Shown: piece after piece, positions 5,128-37,435 of the stretch
Position numbering within the stretch: the stretch's first letter is position 1
Layout: each line of letters starts with the position of its first letter
IMG/VR virus record: IMGVR_UViG_3300001041_000004
Coordinates: 1 to 53,499 of that record
DNA: 53,499 bases
Direction: 5' to 3' (one strand)
From: a virus
Taxonomy: Duplodnaviria; Caudoviricetes
The notes under the pieces: model-generated
The model's input: only the letters and a program-made list of their open reading frames with translations
Told to the model about the DNA's origin: nothing
Database searches by the model: none
Position numbers and translations under genes: made by a program

Positions 5128-6299
5128 TGATTATGGCAATGGATTATTTAGTTGTATCGTATCCTAACTTTGTTTTGGGACAGATTATTGATCCTGAAGA
5201 AGCAAATCAAAACAATACAGATATTACAAGTAAAGTCAATGAAGTTGTTGATGGTGTTAATATAAATTATAGTGCTATTGCTAATCATAAGATAAGTACC
5301 GATCATAACACCTTGTATTACACTAAAACAGAAATTGACAGCAATCTATTAGTGTTTAGTACTAATGAAAATACAAGGGTTCAAAATGAATTACTCAGAG
5401 TACAACAAGAAGCACATCGTCAATTAACGTATACTGATTTTAACGTTGCTGAGACAACAAGGATTAACAACGAAATTATAAGACAAGCAACGTATTCTGA
5501 ATTTAACGATGATGAGTTGATTCGAATTGATAATGAGGTTGCTCGTCTTGCTTCTGAGGATGCTCGTCTTGCCTCTGAAGAGATTCGTTTAAACAGTGAA
5601 GCGTTGAGGGTTTTAGCAGAAGAGAATAGGGTTTTACAGGAGGCATTAAGAATTGCCGCACTTAATGTAACAACAGCTAATGTCAATTACTATATTGACG
5701 CTGTGCTTGGTAATGATGCTAATCTTGGTACAAGTGCTGGTGCTGGTGGTGCATTTAAAACAATTGGCAAAGCACTTTCTTTAATACCTCAAATTGTAAA
5801 TCATTCAATTAATATTTGGGTTGCCGCAGGAGATTATTCAAGTGAACTTTTTATAACCGTTAAGGGTAAAATTGGGTCTGGTATAATTAGTTTTTGGGGT
5901 GACGATAATGCCATTTATAAATACATCTCACTATCTAATAATTCTATTACGATTGTATTTGATAGTGGTCGGTTAAGTGGTATTACTGGTGCAATTATAG
6001 AGGTTGCTAATTGTAAAAAAGTTGCTCTTAGATATTTGAACTTTATTGGTGCATCAGGGATTGGACATGGGATTGTATGTGATAATAGCACAGTGTACTC
6101 TTATGCTTGTGCCATATCTAATAGACTTGGCAATGCTATATGGTGTAGTTATGGTCTTGTTATTAGTGATAATAATGGTGGTACAAGTAATAACGTATGT
6201 CTTTCCGCAGGTAGTGGTGGTACTATTGTTAAAATTGGAACACAACCTACTGGAACAACAGCTGAAAGTGTTTATTATGGTGGTCAAATTCGAGCTTAA
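5124..6299 (+). CDS. Tail spike/fibre with coiled-coil stalk and C-terminal beta-helix-like domain
   Basis: E-x2-R heptad-like repeats (ARLASED x2), 'YYIDAVLGNDAN...AFKTIGKAL' motif typical of beta-helix starts, Gly/Ser/Cys-rich C-terminus. Confidence 0.6.
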   Translation: MMIMAMDYLVVSYPNFVLGQIIDPEEANQNNTDITSKVNEVVDGVNINYSAIANHKISTDHNTLYYTKTEIDSNLLVFSTNENTRVQNELLRVQQEAHRQLTYTDFNVAETTRINNEIIRQATYSEFNDDELIRIDNEVARLASEDARLASEEIRLNSEALRVLAEENRVLQEALRIAALNVTTANVNYYIDAVLGNDANLGTSAGAGGAFKTIGKALSLIPQIVNHSINIWVAAGDYSSELFITVKGKIGSGIISFWGDDNAIYKYISLSNNSITIVFDSGRLSGITGAIIEVANCKKVALRYLNFIGASGIGHGIVCDNSTVYSYACAISNRLGNAIWCSYGLVISDNNGGTSNNVCLSAGSGGTIVKIGTQPTGTTAESVYYGGQIRA

Positions 6300-31496: not shown

Positions 31497-31703
31497 TCAA
31501 AGAATCCTCAGTCGTCGTGAGTAAATACCTGAAAGTTGTAAATACTTCCAAGTGGTTGCATACGAAAGGTGTAATTCTTCAGCAATTTGTTTTGTTGGTA
31601 AATGGTCGTCAACATACATTCTGCGTAGTAATTCTTCAATCTTTTCGTTATGTTTTACTTCAAGATGTTGAATTAAAACGGATTTATTTGGTATTGTTTT
31701 CAC
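31497..31703 (-). CDS. Small helix-turn-helix DNA-binding protein
   Basis: 'LRRMYVDDHLPTKQIAEELHLSYATTWKYLQLSGI' HTH pattern. Confidence 0.75.
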   Translation of the reverse strand: MKTIPNKSVLIQHLEVKHNEKIEELLRRMYVDDHLPTKQIAEELHLSYATTWKYLQLSGIYSRRLRIL

Positions 31704-31717
31704 AGTATACCATACCG

Positions 31718-32827
31718 TTAAGAGTTTGCAATAGAATCCATGATACGTTTTCTGTAAGCATCATCATAAATTTCTCGATTTACAATTCGTAATTTACGAT
31801 TAATGATTTTGAAGTCAAGTATCCCTTCATTAATTCCTTCAATAATTGATTCCTCATCACCATTGTTGAACATATATCCTGTTACTGTAACACTTGGTGA
31901 ATCAACAAGTAGTATTTGTCTCTCTTTAAGACGTAACGAGTTACCGTTATCAAACCTTACATAAACAATAGCATCACCTTTGCTTTTAAGTGTTTTCCAT
32001 CGAGTTAAGTTTAAATTACTCGTTCCCAATTGATAAACATAACCGGCAGTTCCCTTTGCCGTTTCGTTAAGGTCTTTAAAAATACTTGATTCTGGGTCAA
32101 GGCAAACACGCATTCCAATAAGTATTGGCATTGCGTATCGATCATCTTGTGTAAATGGTATTGGTGATTTGATAATATCCTCTCCTTTCTCGATGATATT
32201 TAACATTCCCTTTCGGTAGATGTTATTGTGTCCATTACTCCACCTTACCCTAACCCATCCTTCTGTTTCAATTTCTGTGACGGTTCCATTATCACCCTTG
32301 TGTTGGTATTTGAATTGATTATAATCTTTATGATTTCGGTTTGGTGATACTTTATCACCTACATTAAAATCATCAAATGATTCCATAGGTAATTCTTCCT
32401 TTCTAAATTTCTCAATAGCATCTTTAAGATTTTCATGGGTGAAGGCACCTGTTTGATGGTTGTTAAATAATGGTACTTCAGCACATGGATTTGGTGCAAA
32501 AATCCAATCGTTATTTGGATTTTTTATATACAAACCCATGTCTTCTTCTAGTTTTTCGAATTGTTCACGTGTTTGTACATTTGGTCCAACACCGGATGTC
32601 ATGGGTATATGATTACGTCCTGCATGTATTACTTCCAACGCATCACATTTGTAATTACGTGAATCATCACCATCATCCCAACACACTTTAACCCACTCAT
32701 CAGGCCCTAAATTTATTGGATATTGTTCAATTACCGTACCCTGTTGATTTGTTTGTGATGGTTCATTATAAAGACCACGCATTGGATGGTCTTGTTTAAA
32801 CCTTACACGTGTACCGATAGTTAGCAT
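31718..32827 (-). CDS. Protein with three SH3-like (MIB/HERC2-like) repeats
   Basis: Three copies of G(T/D/M)(R/K)V...G(T/Y)V...(W/Y)V.V.(W/F)..G; starts 1 nt after the E1 stop. Confidence 0.6.
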   Translation of the reverse strand: MLTIGTRVRFKQDHPMRGLYNEPSQTNQQGTVIEQYPINLGPDEWVKVCWDDGDDSRNYKCDALEVIHAGRNHIPMTSGVGPNVQTREQFEKLEEDMGLYIKNPNNDWIFAPNPCAEVPLFNNHQTGAFTHENLKDAIEKFRKEELPMESFDDFNVGDKVSPNRNHKDYNQFKYQHKGDNGTVTEIETEGWVRVRWSNGHNNIYRKGMLNIIEKGEDIIKSPIPFTQDDRYAMPILIGMRVCLDPESSIFKDLNETAKGTAGYVYQLGTSNLNLTRWKTLKSKGDAIVYVRFDNGNSLRLKERQILLVDSPSVTVTGYMFNNGDEESIIEGINEGILDFKIINRKLRIVNREIYDDAYRKRIMDSIANS

Positions 32828-32828
32828 T

Positions 32829-33500
32829 TTACCACCTCTGTGTAATTAAATTGTTGAACTTGAAATCAATGAGGATTTCGTTATCCAATTCCACTTTGTT
32901 GTGGAAATTGATGAGTTGGCGTACACACCAAGAGACAACACCAAAAGATGATGAGATGACACTGAGTGATGTTCCACAGGCACTCACCTCAGTACCTTCA
33001 TCCGAGTAATAGGTTTTCTCATATTCTCTGATGTGAGTTAAGTCCATCGGGTCAACGTTATACACTCGTCCCACATCAAGTCCAAGTCTTGGTTCAATAA
33101 GGTGTTTGACAGCTGATTTCATTTTAATGCTGCCTTCCCAAATACGTTTGCGTTCAGCCATACTGTCCACCATGAGAAAGACAATACCTGATAATTTCTC
33201 ATCAACATAAGCTTCATCTTTAATTCTAATGCGTGTTCCTGTTGCTCTGAGTACTTCTTCTGCAATTGCATGTGCCTTTGTTTCGTTGATATTTAATAAT
33301 GCAAATGCTTGATTTGGGATGTTGTGTTCCTCCACGGTATCAAAGTCCCACACAGTAATATCCGTAATGCCAAGTTTGGCTAAGGCCAATGCTAACCATG
33401 AGCCAGTACTACCAGCACCAATGATCGTTACTGGATGCTTAAAATCATGGGGTTCAAATAAATCTTGATGGCGTGAGATGTTTAGGTTGTGTTGTGCCAT
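32829..33500 (-). CDS. ThiF/E1-like adenylyltransferase (ubiquitin-like activating enzyme)
   Basis: N-terminal SRHQD arginine, IIGAGSTGS, DFDTVEEHNIPNQ, VDSMAER, candidate catalytic Cys in SACG; no Zn-binding CxxC pairs. Confidence 0.92.
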   Translation of the reverse strand: MAQHNLNISRHQDLFEPHDFKHPVTIIGAGSTGSWLALALAKLGITDITVWDFDTVEEHNIPNQAFALLNINETKAHAIAEEVLRATGTRIRIKDEAYVDEKLSGIVFLMVDSMAERKRIWEGSIKMKSAVKHLIEPRLGLDVGRVYNVDPMDLTHIREYEKTYYSDEGTEVSACGTSLSVISSSFGVVSWCVRQLINFHNKVELDNEILIDFKFNNLITQRW

Positions 33501-33512
33501 AATGTATTCCTC

Positions 33513-34574
33513 CTATTTCATTTCTTTTCCTGAGTAAATTGCAAACAGATAACGTTTGCCAAAATCCCATACTAATCCAAGATCACGTTGGTTGAAGTAG
33601 TTGTAATAACCAAATCCAACCAATGTTCTTTCTACCTCAATTAGTGTAGTACATTCACCTATTTCAAGCAAGATGTCTTGATCAAGGATTTCTACAATGG
33701 ATTGATCATCTGTGAAGATGTTGCCAAAACTACTGTCACCTTTTCTTCTTTGATTGATTTTTGTTTCGGCATCCTTTCTTAGTTTCCATGCTTTTTCATC
33801 CAGTTCATCCCACGATTTATTAGGTTTAATAGTCTGTGTAACCGTAGTCGAGGTCGTCCCAGATTGCTTGTTGTGCTGATGGTTTCCAACGTTGGTTCCT
33901 TTGGTTAAGGTTTTGGGGATGGTTGTAAGTGGTAATTGTTGTTTTTTTTTTACCTTTAACAACAGCTCTGTTTTGATGGCTGTTTCATAGTGAGCTAACC
34001 GATTCTTTTGATAGGTTTCCAATTGAAGTTCAAGATCAAAGATAGCTTGTGTAATCTTTTCCTCATCAGGCGAGATAACTTCATCCCATGGTAAGTCAGA
34101 CCAAATGATTCCATGTTCATAATCATAGAGATCAACACGTAATGAACCACTTTTGTTGGCAATGATACGGACAAACCAATCATGTCCAGTGGTTGCAAAA
34201 AATTCCATTTGGTTATCGTCTTGACCACTTGGGCCGGTGGGCATGTTAACGTGGCTATGTCCCCATACCTTTAGGTTATTCCAAATCTCCATACCATTTG
34301 GATTGGCTAGAATTGCTTCACCAAAAGTACTGAGTCCTTCGGGTGTTATCTCTGTGGTTGTGGAGTGAACTTCTTGATCAAACAAGTACATATCAACGAT
34401 CTTAATAACGTTACCTTGTTTATAGGCAGTACCTAACCAACCGACTTCATCGGTGGAGTTGGCAACATAGAGTTGCATTTTATCAACCGCATCAGCATTG
34501 ATCATGATTTCAGGCATACATCGTTCCAAAACCTTCACAGTCGCTTTCGTTTTAGATTCTTTAAAATAAGCCAT
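33513..34574 (-). CDS. JAB/MPN+ (JAMM) metallopeptidase with long C-terminal extension
   Basis: DEVGW...WGHSHVNMPTGPSGQD matches the E...HxH-x7-S-x2-D JAMM motif. Confidence 0.88.
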   Translation of the reverse strand: MAYFKESKTKATVKVLERCMPEIMINADAVDKMQLYVANSTDEVGWLGTAYKQGNVIKIVDMYLFDQEVHSTTTEITPEGLSTFGEAILANPNGMEIWNNLKVWGHSHVNMPTGPSGQDDNQMEFFATTGHDWFVRIIANKSGSLRVDLYDYEHGIIWSDLPWDEVISPDEEKITQAIFDLELQLETYQKNRLAHYETAIKTELLLKVKKKQQLPLTTIPKTLTKGTNVGNHQHNKQSGTTSTTVTQTIKPNKSWDELDEKAWKLRKDAETKINQRRKGDSSFGNIFTDDQSIVEILDQDILLEIGECTTLIEVERTLVGFGYYNYFNQRDLGLVWDFGKRYLFAIYSGKEMK

Positions 34575-34585
34575 TACTTTCCCTC

Positions 34586-35911
34586 CTAATCTTTGTAAAC
34601 ATCTTTGATGTATTCTTCAATATCATCATCCCAATGATATGCATCATCCCTACAATTTTGGCAAACACTGTGTTCACCTTGTAAGTCATCGTTTTCATCA
34701 ATATAATTGAAGACAGTATACAAATTTTCAACAGATTCACTACAATCGTCACACGTGTATAATTGTATTTGATCCTTTGGAATTGGGATGTTGTTTTCAT
34801 CCACTTCATCCCAACGAATAACGTTTTCTCCGGCAGAGTCGTCCGTATTAGCTGATTCTAAGAAGTCAATACCAATGAGTGCCAAGGCATAGATTTGCAT
34901 TTGACTCGATAATTCGGCAATGGTTGATGAGACATTGCCAAGGCAAGCATGACCATCGCTTCCATTAACATGTGGGTGGGGATCGTTATGTGTCCAAAGT
35001 CCACGACGTGTGTTGTTGCCAAAGAAACGAATGTCTGATTGATCTGGGTCAAGTTCAAATCGATACTCACCACCGTAATAACGTTTACCTTTGGTAGATG
35101 TTATTATTAGTGGATAGGTATAGACAATGAATTTACCGCTCTTGATCTTGAGGTCTTTGACTTTTGGATGATTGATAATTAAGTCCAAATCTTGAATAAG
35201 TCCAAGAGAAACATTCTTCAGATTTTCAGTTTCTACTTGAACAAATCGTCGCTTGACACCGATTGAGTCAGAATTTGTCTTAATGGAACGTGCATAATCA
35301 CGAATTTGATTTTCAAGAGTTTGAATTGCTTCCTTAGCTTGTCTCAATTCTCGTTCCTTTTGTTCCTCTAATTTTTTAGTAAACGAACGAGTAAGAGCAT
35401 CTTTATCAGATGTGAACTTCCATGAATCTTGGAGTGATTTTACATACCAAACTTGTTCATTCCACTTCTGCATAATGTGGGTGAACGCATCAATGGATTG
35501 TTGGTTGTACTCTTTGAAGATGTTAAAAAGGATGTTGAGTTCATGAGTTTTTTCACTCCATTCAGCAATTGGTAACCCACCTTCAGAAGTTATGATGAGG
35601 GTATCTTTATTGATGGGTTCTATGAACCGAGTGAATCCAAAGTATTCATCATCTTCTACATTATTAACAACCATCGGTGCTTCACCAGTAAATGTGGCAT
35701 TAGCAAAGATACAGACTCGACGTCCTATTGATCCTGCACCATTGTTATGGACTTCTTCCCTCAGATTATAAAGATCAACGTCTTGAATGTTGAGTTCTGC
35801 AACTTGATTGCGTATGATTTGTGGAAGTTCATTTCTGAATTGATTGTGTTCACCTCGGTTGGCACCTAAAAACGTTTTGTAATCATGGATGCTGATTGTG
35901 TTTATTGGCAT
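34586..35911 (-). CDS. Multidomain prokaryotic E2-like (Ubl-conjugating) protein
   Basis: 'PHPHVNGSDGHACLGN' parallels the UBC HPN...ICL active site; central coiled coil; C-terminal CxxC...CxxC and acidic tail. Confidence 0.75.
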   Translation of the reverse strand: MPINTISIHDYKTFLGANRGEHNQFRNELPQIIRNQVAELNIQDVDLYNLREEVHNNGAGSIGRRVCIFANATFTGEAPMVVNNVEDDEYFGFTRFIEPINKDTLIITSEGGLPIAEWSEKTHELNILFNIFKEYNQQSIDAFTHIMQKWNEQVWYVKSLQDSWKFTSDKDALTRSFTKKLEEQKERELRQAKEAIQTLENQIRDYARSIKTNSDSIGVKRRFVQVETENLKNVSLGLIQDLDLIINHPKVKDLKIKSGKFIVYTYPLIITSTKGKRYYGGEYRFELDPDQSDIRFFGNNTRRGLWTHNDPHPHVNGSDGHACLGNVSSTIAELSSQMQIYALALIGIDFLESANTDDSAGENVIRWDEVDENNIPIPKDQIQLYTCDDCSESVENLYTVFNYIDENDDLQGEHSVCQNCRDDAYHWDDDIEEYIKDVYKD

Positions 35912-36081
35912 TGTATTGCCTCCTTAGTTTAGTTTGGTGTAGGTTTATGCTCTACGTGATGCACACTTACTTCATCAAAGTTACCACGTCTAGTAACTCA
36001 GCTTTTCTTTGTGCATCACGTAAAGCACACCTCATAAGTGTGCTTTACATTTAGTATATTATTAAGAATGATTATTAAATA

Positions 36082-36306
36082 CTAATTGCTATTCCCTTTT
36101 ACCTGTTTGGCAAGAATGATCAGATTGGTATTCTGTGTAACATACGTGCCGTTCAAATCAGTGACAGCATTACCATCCACTTTGACGTCAAACCCTTGGG
36201 CAGAAAGTCCTGCTAATTCGATAACTTGAGCAATGCTTGCACCAACCTCAACGACATACTCACTGATTTTACCCGGCATTTGACCTACGCGAATTGTTTT
36301 TTCCAT
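36082..36306 (-). CDS. Ubiquitin-like (beta-grasp) protein, 74 aa
   Basis: MEKTIRVGQMPG...GASIAQVIELAGLS...VKVDG...LIILAKQVKGNSN has beta-grasp spacing; KG followed by a 3-aa tail; GAAGGA RBS. Confidence 0.78.
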   Translation of the reverse strand: MEKTIRVGQMPGKISEYVVEVGASIAQVIELAGLSAQGFDVKVDGNAVTDLNGTYVTQNTNLIILAKQVKGNSN

Positions 36307-36403
36307 GTGATTGTTTCCTTCTTTCATCATTCATTTTATTAGGGATAAGGCATTGAGATGGCACCTCGCAGGATACCACTTATCTCATAAGCCATAGTTT
36401 AAT

Positions 36404-37435
36404 TTACTTCATGAGTAACATTAGCATCAATGGATCAATTGCACCGGCAGTTGCCGCTCCACCTAATCCACCACCCAGTAACATAAGAGGTAATAAATCT
36501 TTCATTGAGGAGTTGCCGCTTTCCTTATCACCCAACAGAGACATTAAGAGTAGTGGATTGTTTGCAATGCCACCAGAAGCCCCTGCTTGGCCTCCTAAGC
36601 CACCAGACAGCATGAGTAAGGGTAACATGTCGCCGAAGTCACTTGAACCGTCCTTAGACAGCATCATAAGCATCATAGGATTGATGGCAGGAGGTGTTGC
36701 AACAATAACTGGGTTGCCATCTTTGTCGAACAGTTCAGCCATAGCAGGAGCGGTTTGTGCAGAAAATAGAGATTGAACTTTGTAATAAAAGTTGATCCCG
36801 AAGAGGTTGGTTTCTTTGCAGATGGTGGATTTTGTTCCTTTGTTCAAATTGATACCAGAGATGGAACCATTCGTGTTGATATCGAGGACTTGGTAGTAGT
36901 CACCTTTGAATTTGATGACATCAGTAGGGACAACAGCCGTTACAGGCAAGATGAAAATCATATCCGATGCCTCTTTGATGACGAGAGACATTTGATTCAC
37001 GATTTGTCCAAGAGCGGCATCATAGGAGGCATACTCATCAGCTGAGCGGCGAATCGCAATTTGACCACCAAAGGTTAAAGCAACCTCACCGTTTTTCACT
37101 TTGCCAAACTCTCCAAATAATTTGCTAACATTCATGCTAATTCCTTCTTTCTTTTCATTTTTAGGTTGTGTTGATGATGAAACCTTCCCAACAAAATCAT
37201 CTCTCACGTATTCACAATTGGGAGTTTGTGGTACGCGTGGTACACTGGCACAGTTTATGGTTTGGTATTTTGGCTTACTTACTGGGACAACGGGCTCTAT
37301 TTCGAGCAGATCAGAACTTGGCACATCATAGTAACCAACCTTCCCATACACTGTAAATGTGGTAGGTGTTACTTGATCTGCAATGACGACGTTTTCATTG
37401 GTTGAAATGCAATAGACTTTTTCTCCAACTTTCAT
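36404..37435 (-). CDS. Hypothetical protein with C-terminal Gly-rich (N/D/L)P-L/M-rich repeats
   Basis: AGGAGG RBS; repeats NPMMLMML, MLPLLML, NPLLLMSL, LLPLMLL, DPLMLMLL. Confidence 0.75.
   Translation of the reverse strand: MKVGEKVYCISTNENVVIADQVTPTTFTVYGKVGYYDVPSSDLLEIEPVVPVSKPKYQTINCASVPRVPQTPNCEYVRDDFVGKVSSSTQPKNEKKEGISMNVSKLFGEFGKVKNGEVALTFGGQIAIRRSADEYASYDAALGQIVNQMSLVIKEASDMIFILPVTAVVPTDVIKFKGDYYQVLDINTNGSISGINLNKGTKSTICKETNLFGINFYYKVQSLFSAQTAPAMAELFDKDGNPVIVATPPAINPMMLMMLSKDGSSDFGDMLPLLMLSGGLGGQAGASGGIANNPLLLMSLLGDKESGNSSMKDLLPLMLLGGGLGGAATAGAIDPLMLMLLMK

Follow-up and report, generated by a model that had tools for sequence, protein, structure and literature searches.

A MIB/HERC2-like tandem-barrel protein encoded by the last gene of a phage ubiquitin-like operon

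Introduction

What does a protein built from barrels of a type known from eukaryotic ubiquitin ligases do directly behind the E1-like gene of a phage? The question is raised by IMGVR_UViG_3300001041_000004, an IMG/VR record assigned to Duplodnaviria (Caudoviricetes) and analysed here as a window of 53,499 bp, which is the complete virus record with direct terminal repeats. The plus strand of the window carries structural genes (terminase, portal, major head protein and others) and the minus strand replication genes (DNA polymerase, ribonucleotide reductase, DnaB-like helicase and primase). The gene at issue (31718-32827; stop codon at 31718-31720), here termed the barrel gene, encodes a protein of 369 amino acids and sits in a tightly packed minus-strand gene run upstream of the replication module; all window genes and protein segments given with coordinates below lie on this strand. 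Translationally coupled to the gene before it, it closes a phage operon that reads ubiquitin-like protein (Ubl), E2-like protein, JAB-like peptidase, E1-like enzyme and barrel protein. A preliminary description, drawn from the sequence, had presented the product as a triple MIB/HERC2-like SH3 repeat protein and a candidate E3-like adaptor that would select targets for the phage Ubl cascade, and all the strings that it quoted are found in the 369-residue translation. The barrel protein is a real member of the MIB/HERC2 superfamily; its role as an adaptor of the cascade is advanced tentatively.

Domain architecture and protein family

The three repeats of the barrel protein are mutually homologous SH3-like barrels, located at residues 1-70 (repeat 1; 32618-32827), 151-216 (repeat 2; 32180-32377) and 228-310 (repeat 3; 31898-32146). 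In pairwise blastp comparisons, repeat 1 matches repeat 2 with an E-value of 2e-4 and repeat 3 is matched weakly (E 0.03-0.7). When family profiles of the single repeats are compared by hhalign, repeats 1 and 2 match with a probability of 99.5% and repeats 3 and 2 with 98.7%; a negative control, the C-terminal subdomain compared with these repeats and with MIB repeats, gives 0.1%, which indicates that this subdomain is unrelated to the barrels. Repeat 3 is a real repeat, as had been described, but not a free-standing one: this divergent barrel forms the N-terminal half of a module of ~140 residues (228-369) that is conserved as a unit in all 52 members of the protein family.

This family was delimited by a HMMER scan of 1.84 billion representative sequences, which returned 68 matches. 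These comprise a rare family of 52 short proteins (138-374 amino acids, one per cluster), 14 long proteins and two sequences that were set aside, namely P0037, whose sequence is oddly repetitive, and P0063, a single repeat of 76 residues with no Pfam match. The long proteins match residues ~173-227 only (~153-206 for P0050); nine of them were run against Pfam, and eight carry MIB_HERC2 above the cut-off (86-433 bits), with P0061 just under it (31.7 bits). The constant core of the short family is the C-terminal module (~228-369), ahead of which the number of N-terminal repeats varies from zero to three, repeat 1 being present in only 13 of the 52 members. Within the module G238 is invariant, and P234, V241 and P245 are kept in at least 90% of members. 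The second half of the module is an alpha/beta subdomain (residues 311-369; 31721-31897) that is always joined to repeat 3, is assigned to no named family, and has D338, I342, D355 and R359 as conserved residues. No Pfam or PHROG family covers the module in scans of the barrel protein and the 52 family members, and the ESM Atlas matches for residues 226-369 (motB, DUF4314 and MIB_HERC2-containing clusters), all scoring below 0.9, serve as leads only.

An AlphaFold 2 (AF2) model built with the 52-sequence alignment has a mean predicted local distance difference test score (pLDDT) of 82.9 and replaced a single-sequence model with a score of 29.5. It places the barrels at about residues 1-70, 155-215 and 235-310, with pLDDT values of 74-93 for repeat 1, 93-96 for repeat 2 and 93-98 for repeat 3, and predicts a strand-strand-helix-strand-helix order for the C-terminal subdomain (94-98). 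The linker between repeats 1 and 2 (residues 71-150; 32378-32617) is poorly conserved, is covered by few homologues and is modelled with low confidence (36-74, with segments 72-85 and 111-129 below 50).

Neither the barrel gene and its product (megablast and tblastn) nor the module-only relative P0010 (tblastn) found a match among 50,697 GenBank phage records, and a word-indexed protein search returned the barrel protein itself alone. Searches for related loci were likewise negative in viral contigs (with the barrel protein, the 10-sequence alignment A2, P0008, P0020 and P0019 as queries), metagenome contigs (A2 and P0020) and genome contigs (P0011 and an E1 alignment). Of the family members, P0007, P0018 and P0020 are encoded on contigs of 51.9, 32.7 and 253 kb, and P0011 and P0012, which are close relatives, map to strains of Dehalobacter.

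Relationship to MIB/HERC2 domains

The likeness of repeat 2 to the MIB/HERC2 domain, which the preliminary description had pointed out, proves to be measurable: in Pfam the barrel protein scores best against MIB_HERC2 (E 4.7e-8), and its best match among PDB sequences is the MIB domain of HECTD1. The Pfam match (PF06701.19; residues 177-208, profile positions 19-56 of 66) scores 33.3 bits, 0.2 bits short of the gathering cut-off of 33.5, and the precomputed annotation of the sequence collection lists PF06701.20 for the same protein. MIB_HERC2 is also matched by 10 of the 52 family members at E <= 0.01, none of which outscores the barrel protein. The HECTD1 match in PDB sequences has an E-value of 0.6 with the single sequence and 0.006 with the family profile, for which MIB1 is also among the best matches. 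What phage repeat 2 and the MIB/HERC2 domain have in common is a second-half motif, G-T-V ... G-W-V-x-V-x-W-x-x-G-x-x-N-x-Y-R-x-G, as seen in the HECTD1 alignment and at Pfam positions 19-56.

Profile comparison extends this relationship. When the repeat-2 profile (32 sequences) was aligned by hhalign with 43 repeats of Pfam-verified MIB_HERC2 proteins, the match reached 99.0% (E 6.9e-18), a figure somewhat inflated because the 43 repeats had been picked by the phage profile itself. The alignment spans 54 columns (2-59 of 67) with one four-residue insertion, and the homology runs over most of the ~66-residue domain, beyond the positions 19-56 found by hmmscan. Against eukaryote-type MIB_HERC2 repeats, repeat 1 gives 97.8% and repeat 3 gives 94.9%. 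The first half of the domain differs: the eukaryote-type 'rGpdWkWg.Qdg' stretch, rich in tryptophan and glycine, which by our own reading is the MIB_HERC2 signature, is not present, and the phage consensus has P164, H166, Y169 and Q175 together with the four-residue insertion.

Other families related to these barrels score lower. DUF4314 (PF14192) reaches 20.1 bits against a cut-off of 27 (E 6.3e-4) at residues 176-201, overlapping the stronger MIB_HERC2 match. It is also matched by four of the 52 family members (E <= 0.01) and by the Pfam-verified MIB_HERC2 protein P0050 (E 2.4e-12), which suggests that MIB_HERC2 and DUF4314 are close relatives. The ubiquitin-binding SH3-C domain of UBE2O follows with an E-value of 0.0042 (17.4 bits against a cut-off of 21). 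At E <= 1, Pfam returns no KOW, Tudor or YorP family for the barrel protein, and single family members match other SH3-like Pfam families, such as SH3_12 and NdhS. On these profile comparisons, the repeats are best read as a divergent branch of the MIB_HERC2/DUF4314 group and as more than generic SH3 domains.

The preference for MIB_HERC2 over generic SH3 domains holds at the level of profiles and does not hold at the level of folds. Repeat 2 of the AF2 model superimposes on the HECTD1 structure 3dkm with a root-mean-square deviation of 2.5 Å over 61 columns (28% identity), and a stretch spanning repeats 2 and 3 can be aligned with MIB1 (chain 4xi6; 26% identity, Z 8.5). The remaining fold matches include Spt5 KOW (Z 8.7), YorP (7.7), HECTD1 (2dk3; 7.0), the CPH domain of PARC (7.0), UBE2O (6.4), further Spt5/NusG KOW domains (8.0 and 7.3), Tudor domains and ribosomal SH3-like proteins. 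Values of Z 6-9 are reached by unrelated small barrels and demonstrate a common barrel, not membership; with KOW and YorP fitting equally well, fold alone cannot single out MIB_HERC2.

Operon position, synteny and exchange of the barrel gene

The junction between the E1 gene and the barrel gene (32825-32838) reads GAGGTGG-TAA-A-ATG on the coding strand: a ribosome-binding-site-like GAGGTGG (32832-32838) inside the E1 3' end, the E1 stop codon TAA (32829-32831), one nucleotide and the start codon ATG (32825-32827). The earlier statement that the gene begins one nucleotide past the E1 stop is therefore exact. The junction is equally tight in relatives, with an ATGA overlap at locus L002 and a one-nucleotide gap (TGA-t-GTG) at L006. 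No strong minus-strand terminator is seen between 37435 and 31718.

Loci for comparison were gathered with family member P0076, which led to two IMG/VR contigs, and then by an E1-based scan, which gave 46 viral loci whose open reading frames (ORFs) were labelled with the window proteins. The JAB-like gene adjoins E1 in 41 of the 46, and an E2-like homologue and a Ubl were recognized in 22 and 17 respectively, both counts being limited by search sensitivity. That the barrel gene is syntenic with the operon is true of three other viral contigs, those of proviruses (L002, L003 and L006), all with the tight E1 junction, and fails for 43 of the 46 E1 loci, which have no such gene. Within the E1-based set the family follows E1 only at L004, L005 and L006, L004 and L005 sharing their contigs with L003 and L002 respectively. 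Gene order is as in the window for nine genes at L002 and L006, and for eight of the nine at L003, whose contig begins at the Ubl gene. A family profile (A1) found no match in the records behind L007-L011, four of these five records being fragments.

The barrel gene is by far the most diverged gene of the locus. The window protein is 30-35% identical to its homologues at L002, L003 and L006, compared with 39-65% for the neighbouring gene products, and even between the near-identical proviruses L002 and L006 the barrel proteins share 40% identity, compared with 74-100% for their neighbours. At the DNA level, the identity of L002 and L006 is 100% as far as the Ubl gene and 81% over the stretch from Ubl to the end of E1; the barrel gene cannot be aligned, and from its stop codon onward the identity is 93%, a pattern that indicates a divergent block beginning at Ubl and ending at the barrel gene. 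The gene marks one end of a divergent Ubl-cascade block and is also exchangeable on its own.

Possible functions of the barrel protein

The barrel protein is a non-catalytic protein composed of three MIB/HERC2-type SH3-like barrels and a small new alpha/beta subdomain, and its most likely role would be that of an optional, fast-evolving protein-binding accessory of the Ubl cascade, akin to an E3 scaffold. Docking on the machinery would fall to the constant C-terminal module, and the N-terminal barrels, variable in number, would grip a target peptide or even the Ubl, letting the E2-like enzyme tag it. We put this adaptor role forward tentatively, as plausible rather than probable; that the protein selects targets for the phage Ubl cascade, and with it any binding, target or effect on conjugation, is something we infer. 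Several observations count for it. These include the operon position with its E1 junction and the relationship to the unit with which Mind bomb binds its substrates, the combination of a constant module with a variable number of peptide-binding-type barrels, and the extreme divergence of the gene, which is the pattern expected for a specificity determinant. In MIB1, the Mib-Herc2/ZZ/Mib-Herc2 (MZM) unit binds the N-box of Notch ligands (PMC11887331). A possible parallel is provided by L009 (710-3170), where seven tandem genes for SH3-like single-barrel proteins (72-111 amino acids) surround E1, two between a JAB remnant and E1 and five in tandem (72-81 amino acids) after it; most of these singletons share an E-x-x-F-W-x-E-V tail.

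About as likely is that the barrel gene is an independent accessory early gene, serving host takeover or anti-defence, which occupies a hypervariable slot after E1 and is co-transcribed with the cascade with no functional tie to it; its barrels would then bind a host or phage protein. A series of observations weighs against the adaptor role and for this alternative. The gene is found in only three of the 46 viral E1 loci, all of one small clade, and the slot varies among close relatives: L007, whose E1 is 61% identical, passes from E1 directly to the helix-turn-helix (HTH) gene, L008 (E1 53% identical) has five unrelated small ORFs in its place, and the L009 singletons are only weakly MIB-like (hhalign 63.5%; Pfam SH3_13, E 0.0025). 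The absences at L007 and L008 show that the cascade does not need the barrel gene. L002 and L003 have one barrel-gene allele in common (96%), whereas their E1, E2 and Ubl are 84-89% identical, so that the gene and the cascade genes are exchanged independently. The divergence of the barrel gene, the greatest in the locus, can be counted for independence too. As regards the adaptor role itself, it also weighs against it that close spacing is ordinary in this early region (11-14 nucleotides at neighbouring junctions), that the barrels fit KOW, YorP and Tudor by fold as well as they fit MIB, and that the genomic contexts obtained cover four of the 52 family clusters.

Similar repeats are also found in replication or early modules of phages that have no E1, and many phages encode multi-SH3 proteins whose function is unknown, which counts on the same side. 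In Pseudomonas phage UAVern, repeat 2 finds a hypothetical protein of the replication module by tblastn (E 7e-4); the complete genome of this phage has no ThiF match, the records of L002 and L006 having matched as positive controls. Of two PHROG families of unknown function, phrog_11307 has matches in 28 and phrog_9469 in 26 of the 52 family members, with repeat 2 of the barrel protein itself matching phrog_9469 at E 2.8e-12. BFVD gives 79 viral proteins at E <= 0.001, most of them uncharacterized. The MIB/HERC2-like barrel is a common, recurrent building block of phage early proteins. Two further occurrences concern RIIB proteins: in Hafnia phage vB_HpaM_SarahDanielle (MW749010.1, 35078-35272) a gene annotated as 'putative rIIB lysis inhibitor' contains a MIB-like repeat that covers 93% of repeat 2 at 37% identity (E 3e-3), and the RIIB protein of a Pectobacterium phage is among the BFVD fold matches.

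Absence from most operons, independent exchange and repeats in E1-less phages fit an unrelated accessory gene as well as they fit an optional adaptor. Three observations sit poorly with full independence: the E1 junction is preserved over alleles that are just 30-40% identical, the divergent DNA block that distinguishes L002 from L006 begins at Ubl and ends at the barrel gene, and the best-matching named family belongs to ubiquitin ligases. A prediction of the four-chain complex (E1, E2-like protein 255-441, Ubl 1-71 and barrel protein 150-369) scored 0.00, which leaves the case for or against binding as it was.

Ubiquitin is a ligand of some SH3-type domains. The barrel protein could accordingly be a Ubl-binding regulator, a 'reader' whose barrels bind the Ubl non-covalently, or a preferred acceptor that is itself tagged, in either case tuning or receiving the output of the cascade. 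We judge this improbable. Operon position and coupling speak for it as they do for the adaptor role, and UBE2O appears both as a weak Pfam match and among the fold matches, but the Pfam match is under the cut-off and falls on residues of the stronger MIB_HERC2 match, and most operons of this type have no barrel gene. A nucleic-acid- or transcription-associated factor of KOW/Tudor type, acting together with the HTH protein encoded downstream and with the replication genes, is very improbable: KOW domains, Tudor domains and ribosomal SH3-like proteins are among the best fold matches and the gene lies just upstream of the HTH gene and replication module, but such Z-scores are expected between unrelated small barrels, the Pfam scan yields MIB_HERC2 and no KOW or Tudor family, and the acidity of the protein (isoelectric point 5.5, only the third barrel being mildly basic at 8.8) argues against a nucleic-acid role.

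A catalytic (thioester-forming, HECT- or RBR-like) E3 was considered and rejected, because no cysteine column is conserved over the 52 members. C242 is invariant in alignment A2, and the L002 and L006 homologues, as read by eye, seem to have M and A at this position.

Neighbouring genes of the operon

Immediately upstream of the barrel gene lies the gene for a ThiF-type E1-like adenylating enzyme of 223 amino acids (32829-33500; Pfam ThiF, E 1.9e-12). A profile of 30 E1 sequences matches UBA5 (E 3e-19), ThiF, MoeB, UBA6/UBA1 and BubCD (E 1.5e-10), and on this sequence evidence the E1 assignment is solid. PADLOC matched the E1 in its ThiF part only, through the E1-E2 models of the cyclic-oligonucleotide-based antiphage signalling system (CBASS), and gave no match for the barrel protein. 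The next gene upstream encodes a JAB/JAMM-like peptidase of 353 amino acids with a long C-terminal extension (33513-34574). Its Pfam Prok-JAB match is weak (E 0.046), and its sequence contains H-S-H followed by an S-x-x-D stretch, which we take to be the JAMM signature.

The protein of 441 amino acids encoded at 34586-35911 is probably an E2-like enzyme. It has a coiled-coil N-terminal and middle part and a cysteine-rich tail with two C-x-x-C pairs, and its motif HPH[VI]...G..C[LF], which is present in the window protein itself and in 11 of the 24 distinct homologues that were scanned, resembles the HPN...Cys active-site motif of E2 enzymes. Prok-E2_D and UQ_con clusters are among its Atlas structure matches (template modelling score 0.52-0.54, a lead only); neither Pfam nor a PDB sequence search gave an E2 match, and the protein found no related loci when used as a query against viral contigs. 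The cysteine-rich tail is absent at L007 and L011. Co-occurrence of this tail with the barrel gene was considered and dropped, L007 being without both but L008 having the tail without the gene.

The Ubl gene is annotated at 36082-36330; its true start is likely the ATG at 36306, which would give a protein of 74 amino acids. In an alignment of nine homologues the C-terminal glycine is invariant and is followed by zero to three extra residues (NSN in the window), as expected if the JAB peptidase trims the Ubl. The window Ubl is 59-60% identical to its L002 homologue. It has no match in the Pfam scan, so that its beta-grasp fold is a presumption. A hairpin with an 11-bp stem (36020-36048) lies in the gap between the Ubl and E2-like genes and might lower read-through, the Ubl then being made in excess. 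In several other loci (L013, L015-L017 and L032) the Ubl homologue is of double length (136-164 amino acids), and at the more distant E1 loci L010 (6540-11326) and L013 (4002-7113) two or three E2-like paralogues occur in tandem.

The run opens with a gene for a protein of 343 amino acids (36404-37435) that has no family match; its N-terminus resembles another small barrel and its C-terminal third consists of Gly/Leu/Met-rich repeats. This protein is 100% identical between L002 and L006, while the adjoining Ubl genes differ (74%). Directly downstream of the barrel gene lies the gene for the HTH protein of 68 amino acids (31497-31703). In the corresponding slot after E1 at L008, a 66-residue cysteine-rich protein (5908-6108) that weakly matches an FCS-type zinc finger (E 0.0032) is followed by an XRE-like HTH gene.

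Comparison with known systems

The MIB/HERC2 domain (PF06701), which is found in MIB1/2, HERC2 and HECTD1, is, like the phage repeats, an SH3-like barrel of ~65 residues, and in MIB1 the domains stand in tandem, as they do in the phage protein. Unlike the eukaryotic ligases, however, the phage protein has no RING, HECT, ZZ or ankyrin parts in the Pfam scan, and its barrels differ from eukaryotic MIB/HERC2 domains in their first half and in being joined to a new C-terminal subdomain. Nearer in setting are DUF4314, phrog_9469, phrog_11307, phrog_7871 and YorP of the Bacillus subtilis SPbeta prophage, which have the same barrel in the same phage context; the PHROG profiles (63-186 positions), all of families of unknown function, match repeats 1 and 2 only (residues 4-56 and 153-217), with none on the C-terminal module.

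Among conjugation systems, the bacterial Bil and Bub operons resemble the phage operon in that E1, E2-like protein, Ubl and a JAB-type peptidase each have a gene of their own within one operon; they are bacterial defence or stress systems, whereas the present operon is carried by a phage. As far as the available part of the source goes, the Bil and Bub pathways perform real protein conjugation and most of their targets are unknown, and an SH3- or MIB-type partner is not mentioned there, the term 'SH3' occurring zero times (PMC11601603). Linkage of Ub-like, E1-like, E2-like and JAB genes in predicted operons of sporadic distribution was described by Iyer, Burroughs and Aravind (2006), who also consider E3-like adaptors among the neighbouring genes (PMC1779556). 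In that paper 'SH3' and 'HERC2' both occur zero times, and the phage example given there, the tail-assembly Ubl of lambda/T1 with JAB-NlpC, is a system different from the present operon.

Implications

In the full-text literature covered, which holds few subscription journals and no supplements, no paper was found on MIB/HERC2-like domains in phages or prokaryotes, nor on DUF4314, and the parts of it available describe no E3-like specificity factor for bacterial or phage Ubl systems. A more far-reaching form of the adaptor role, which we regard as doubtful, is that a MIB/HERC2-type tandem-barrel protein was recruited in one lineage as an exchangeable, fast-diversifying target selector of a complete Ubl tagging system that the phage itself carries. 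Such a protein would be a counterpart in a virus of prokaryotes, and possibly an evolutionary forerunner, of the substrate-recognition unit of Mind bomb and HERC2, and its alleles would aim the Ubl at different proteins of the host or of rival phages.

If the adaptor role is true, a bacterial virus would have a domain known from eukaryotic ubiquitin ligases side by side with a Ubl cascade, and an exchangeable MIB/HERC2-like partner would offer a handle on how phage and bacterial Ubl cascades choose their targets. Even without a link to the cascade, a new module of ~140 residues is defined, and MIB/HERC2-like barrels emerge as a recurrent, uncharacterized building block of phage early proteins.

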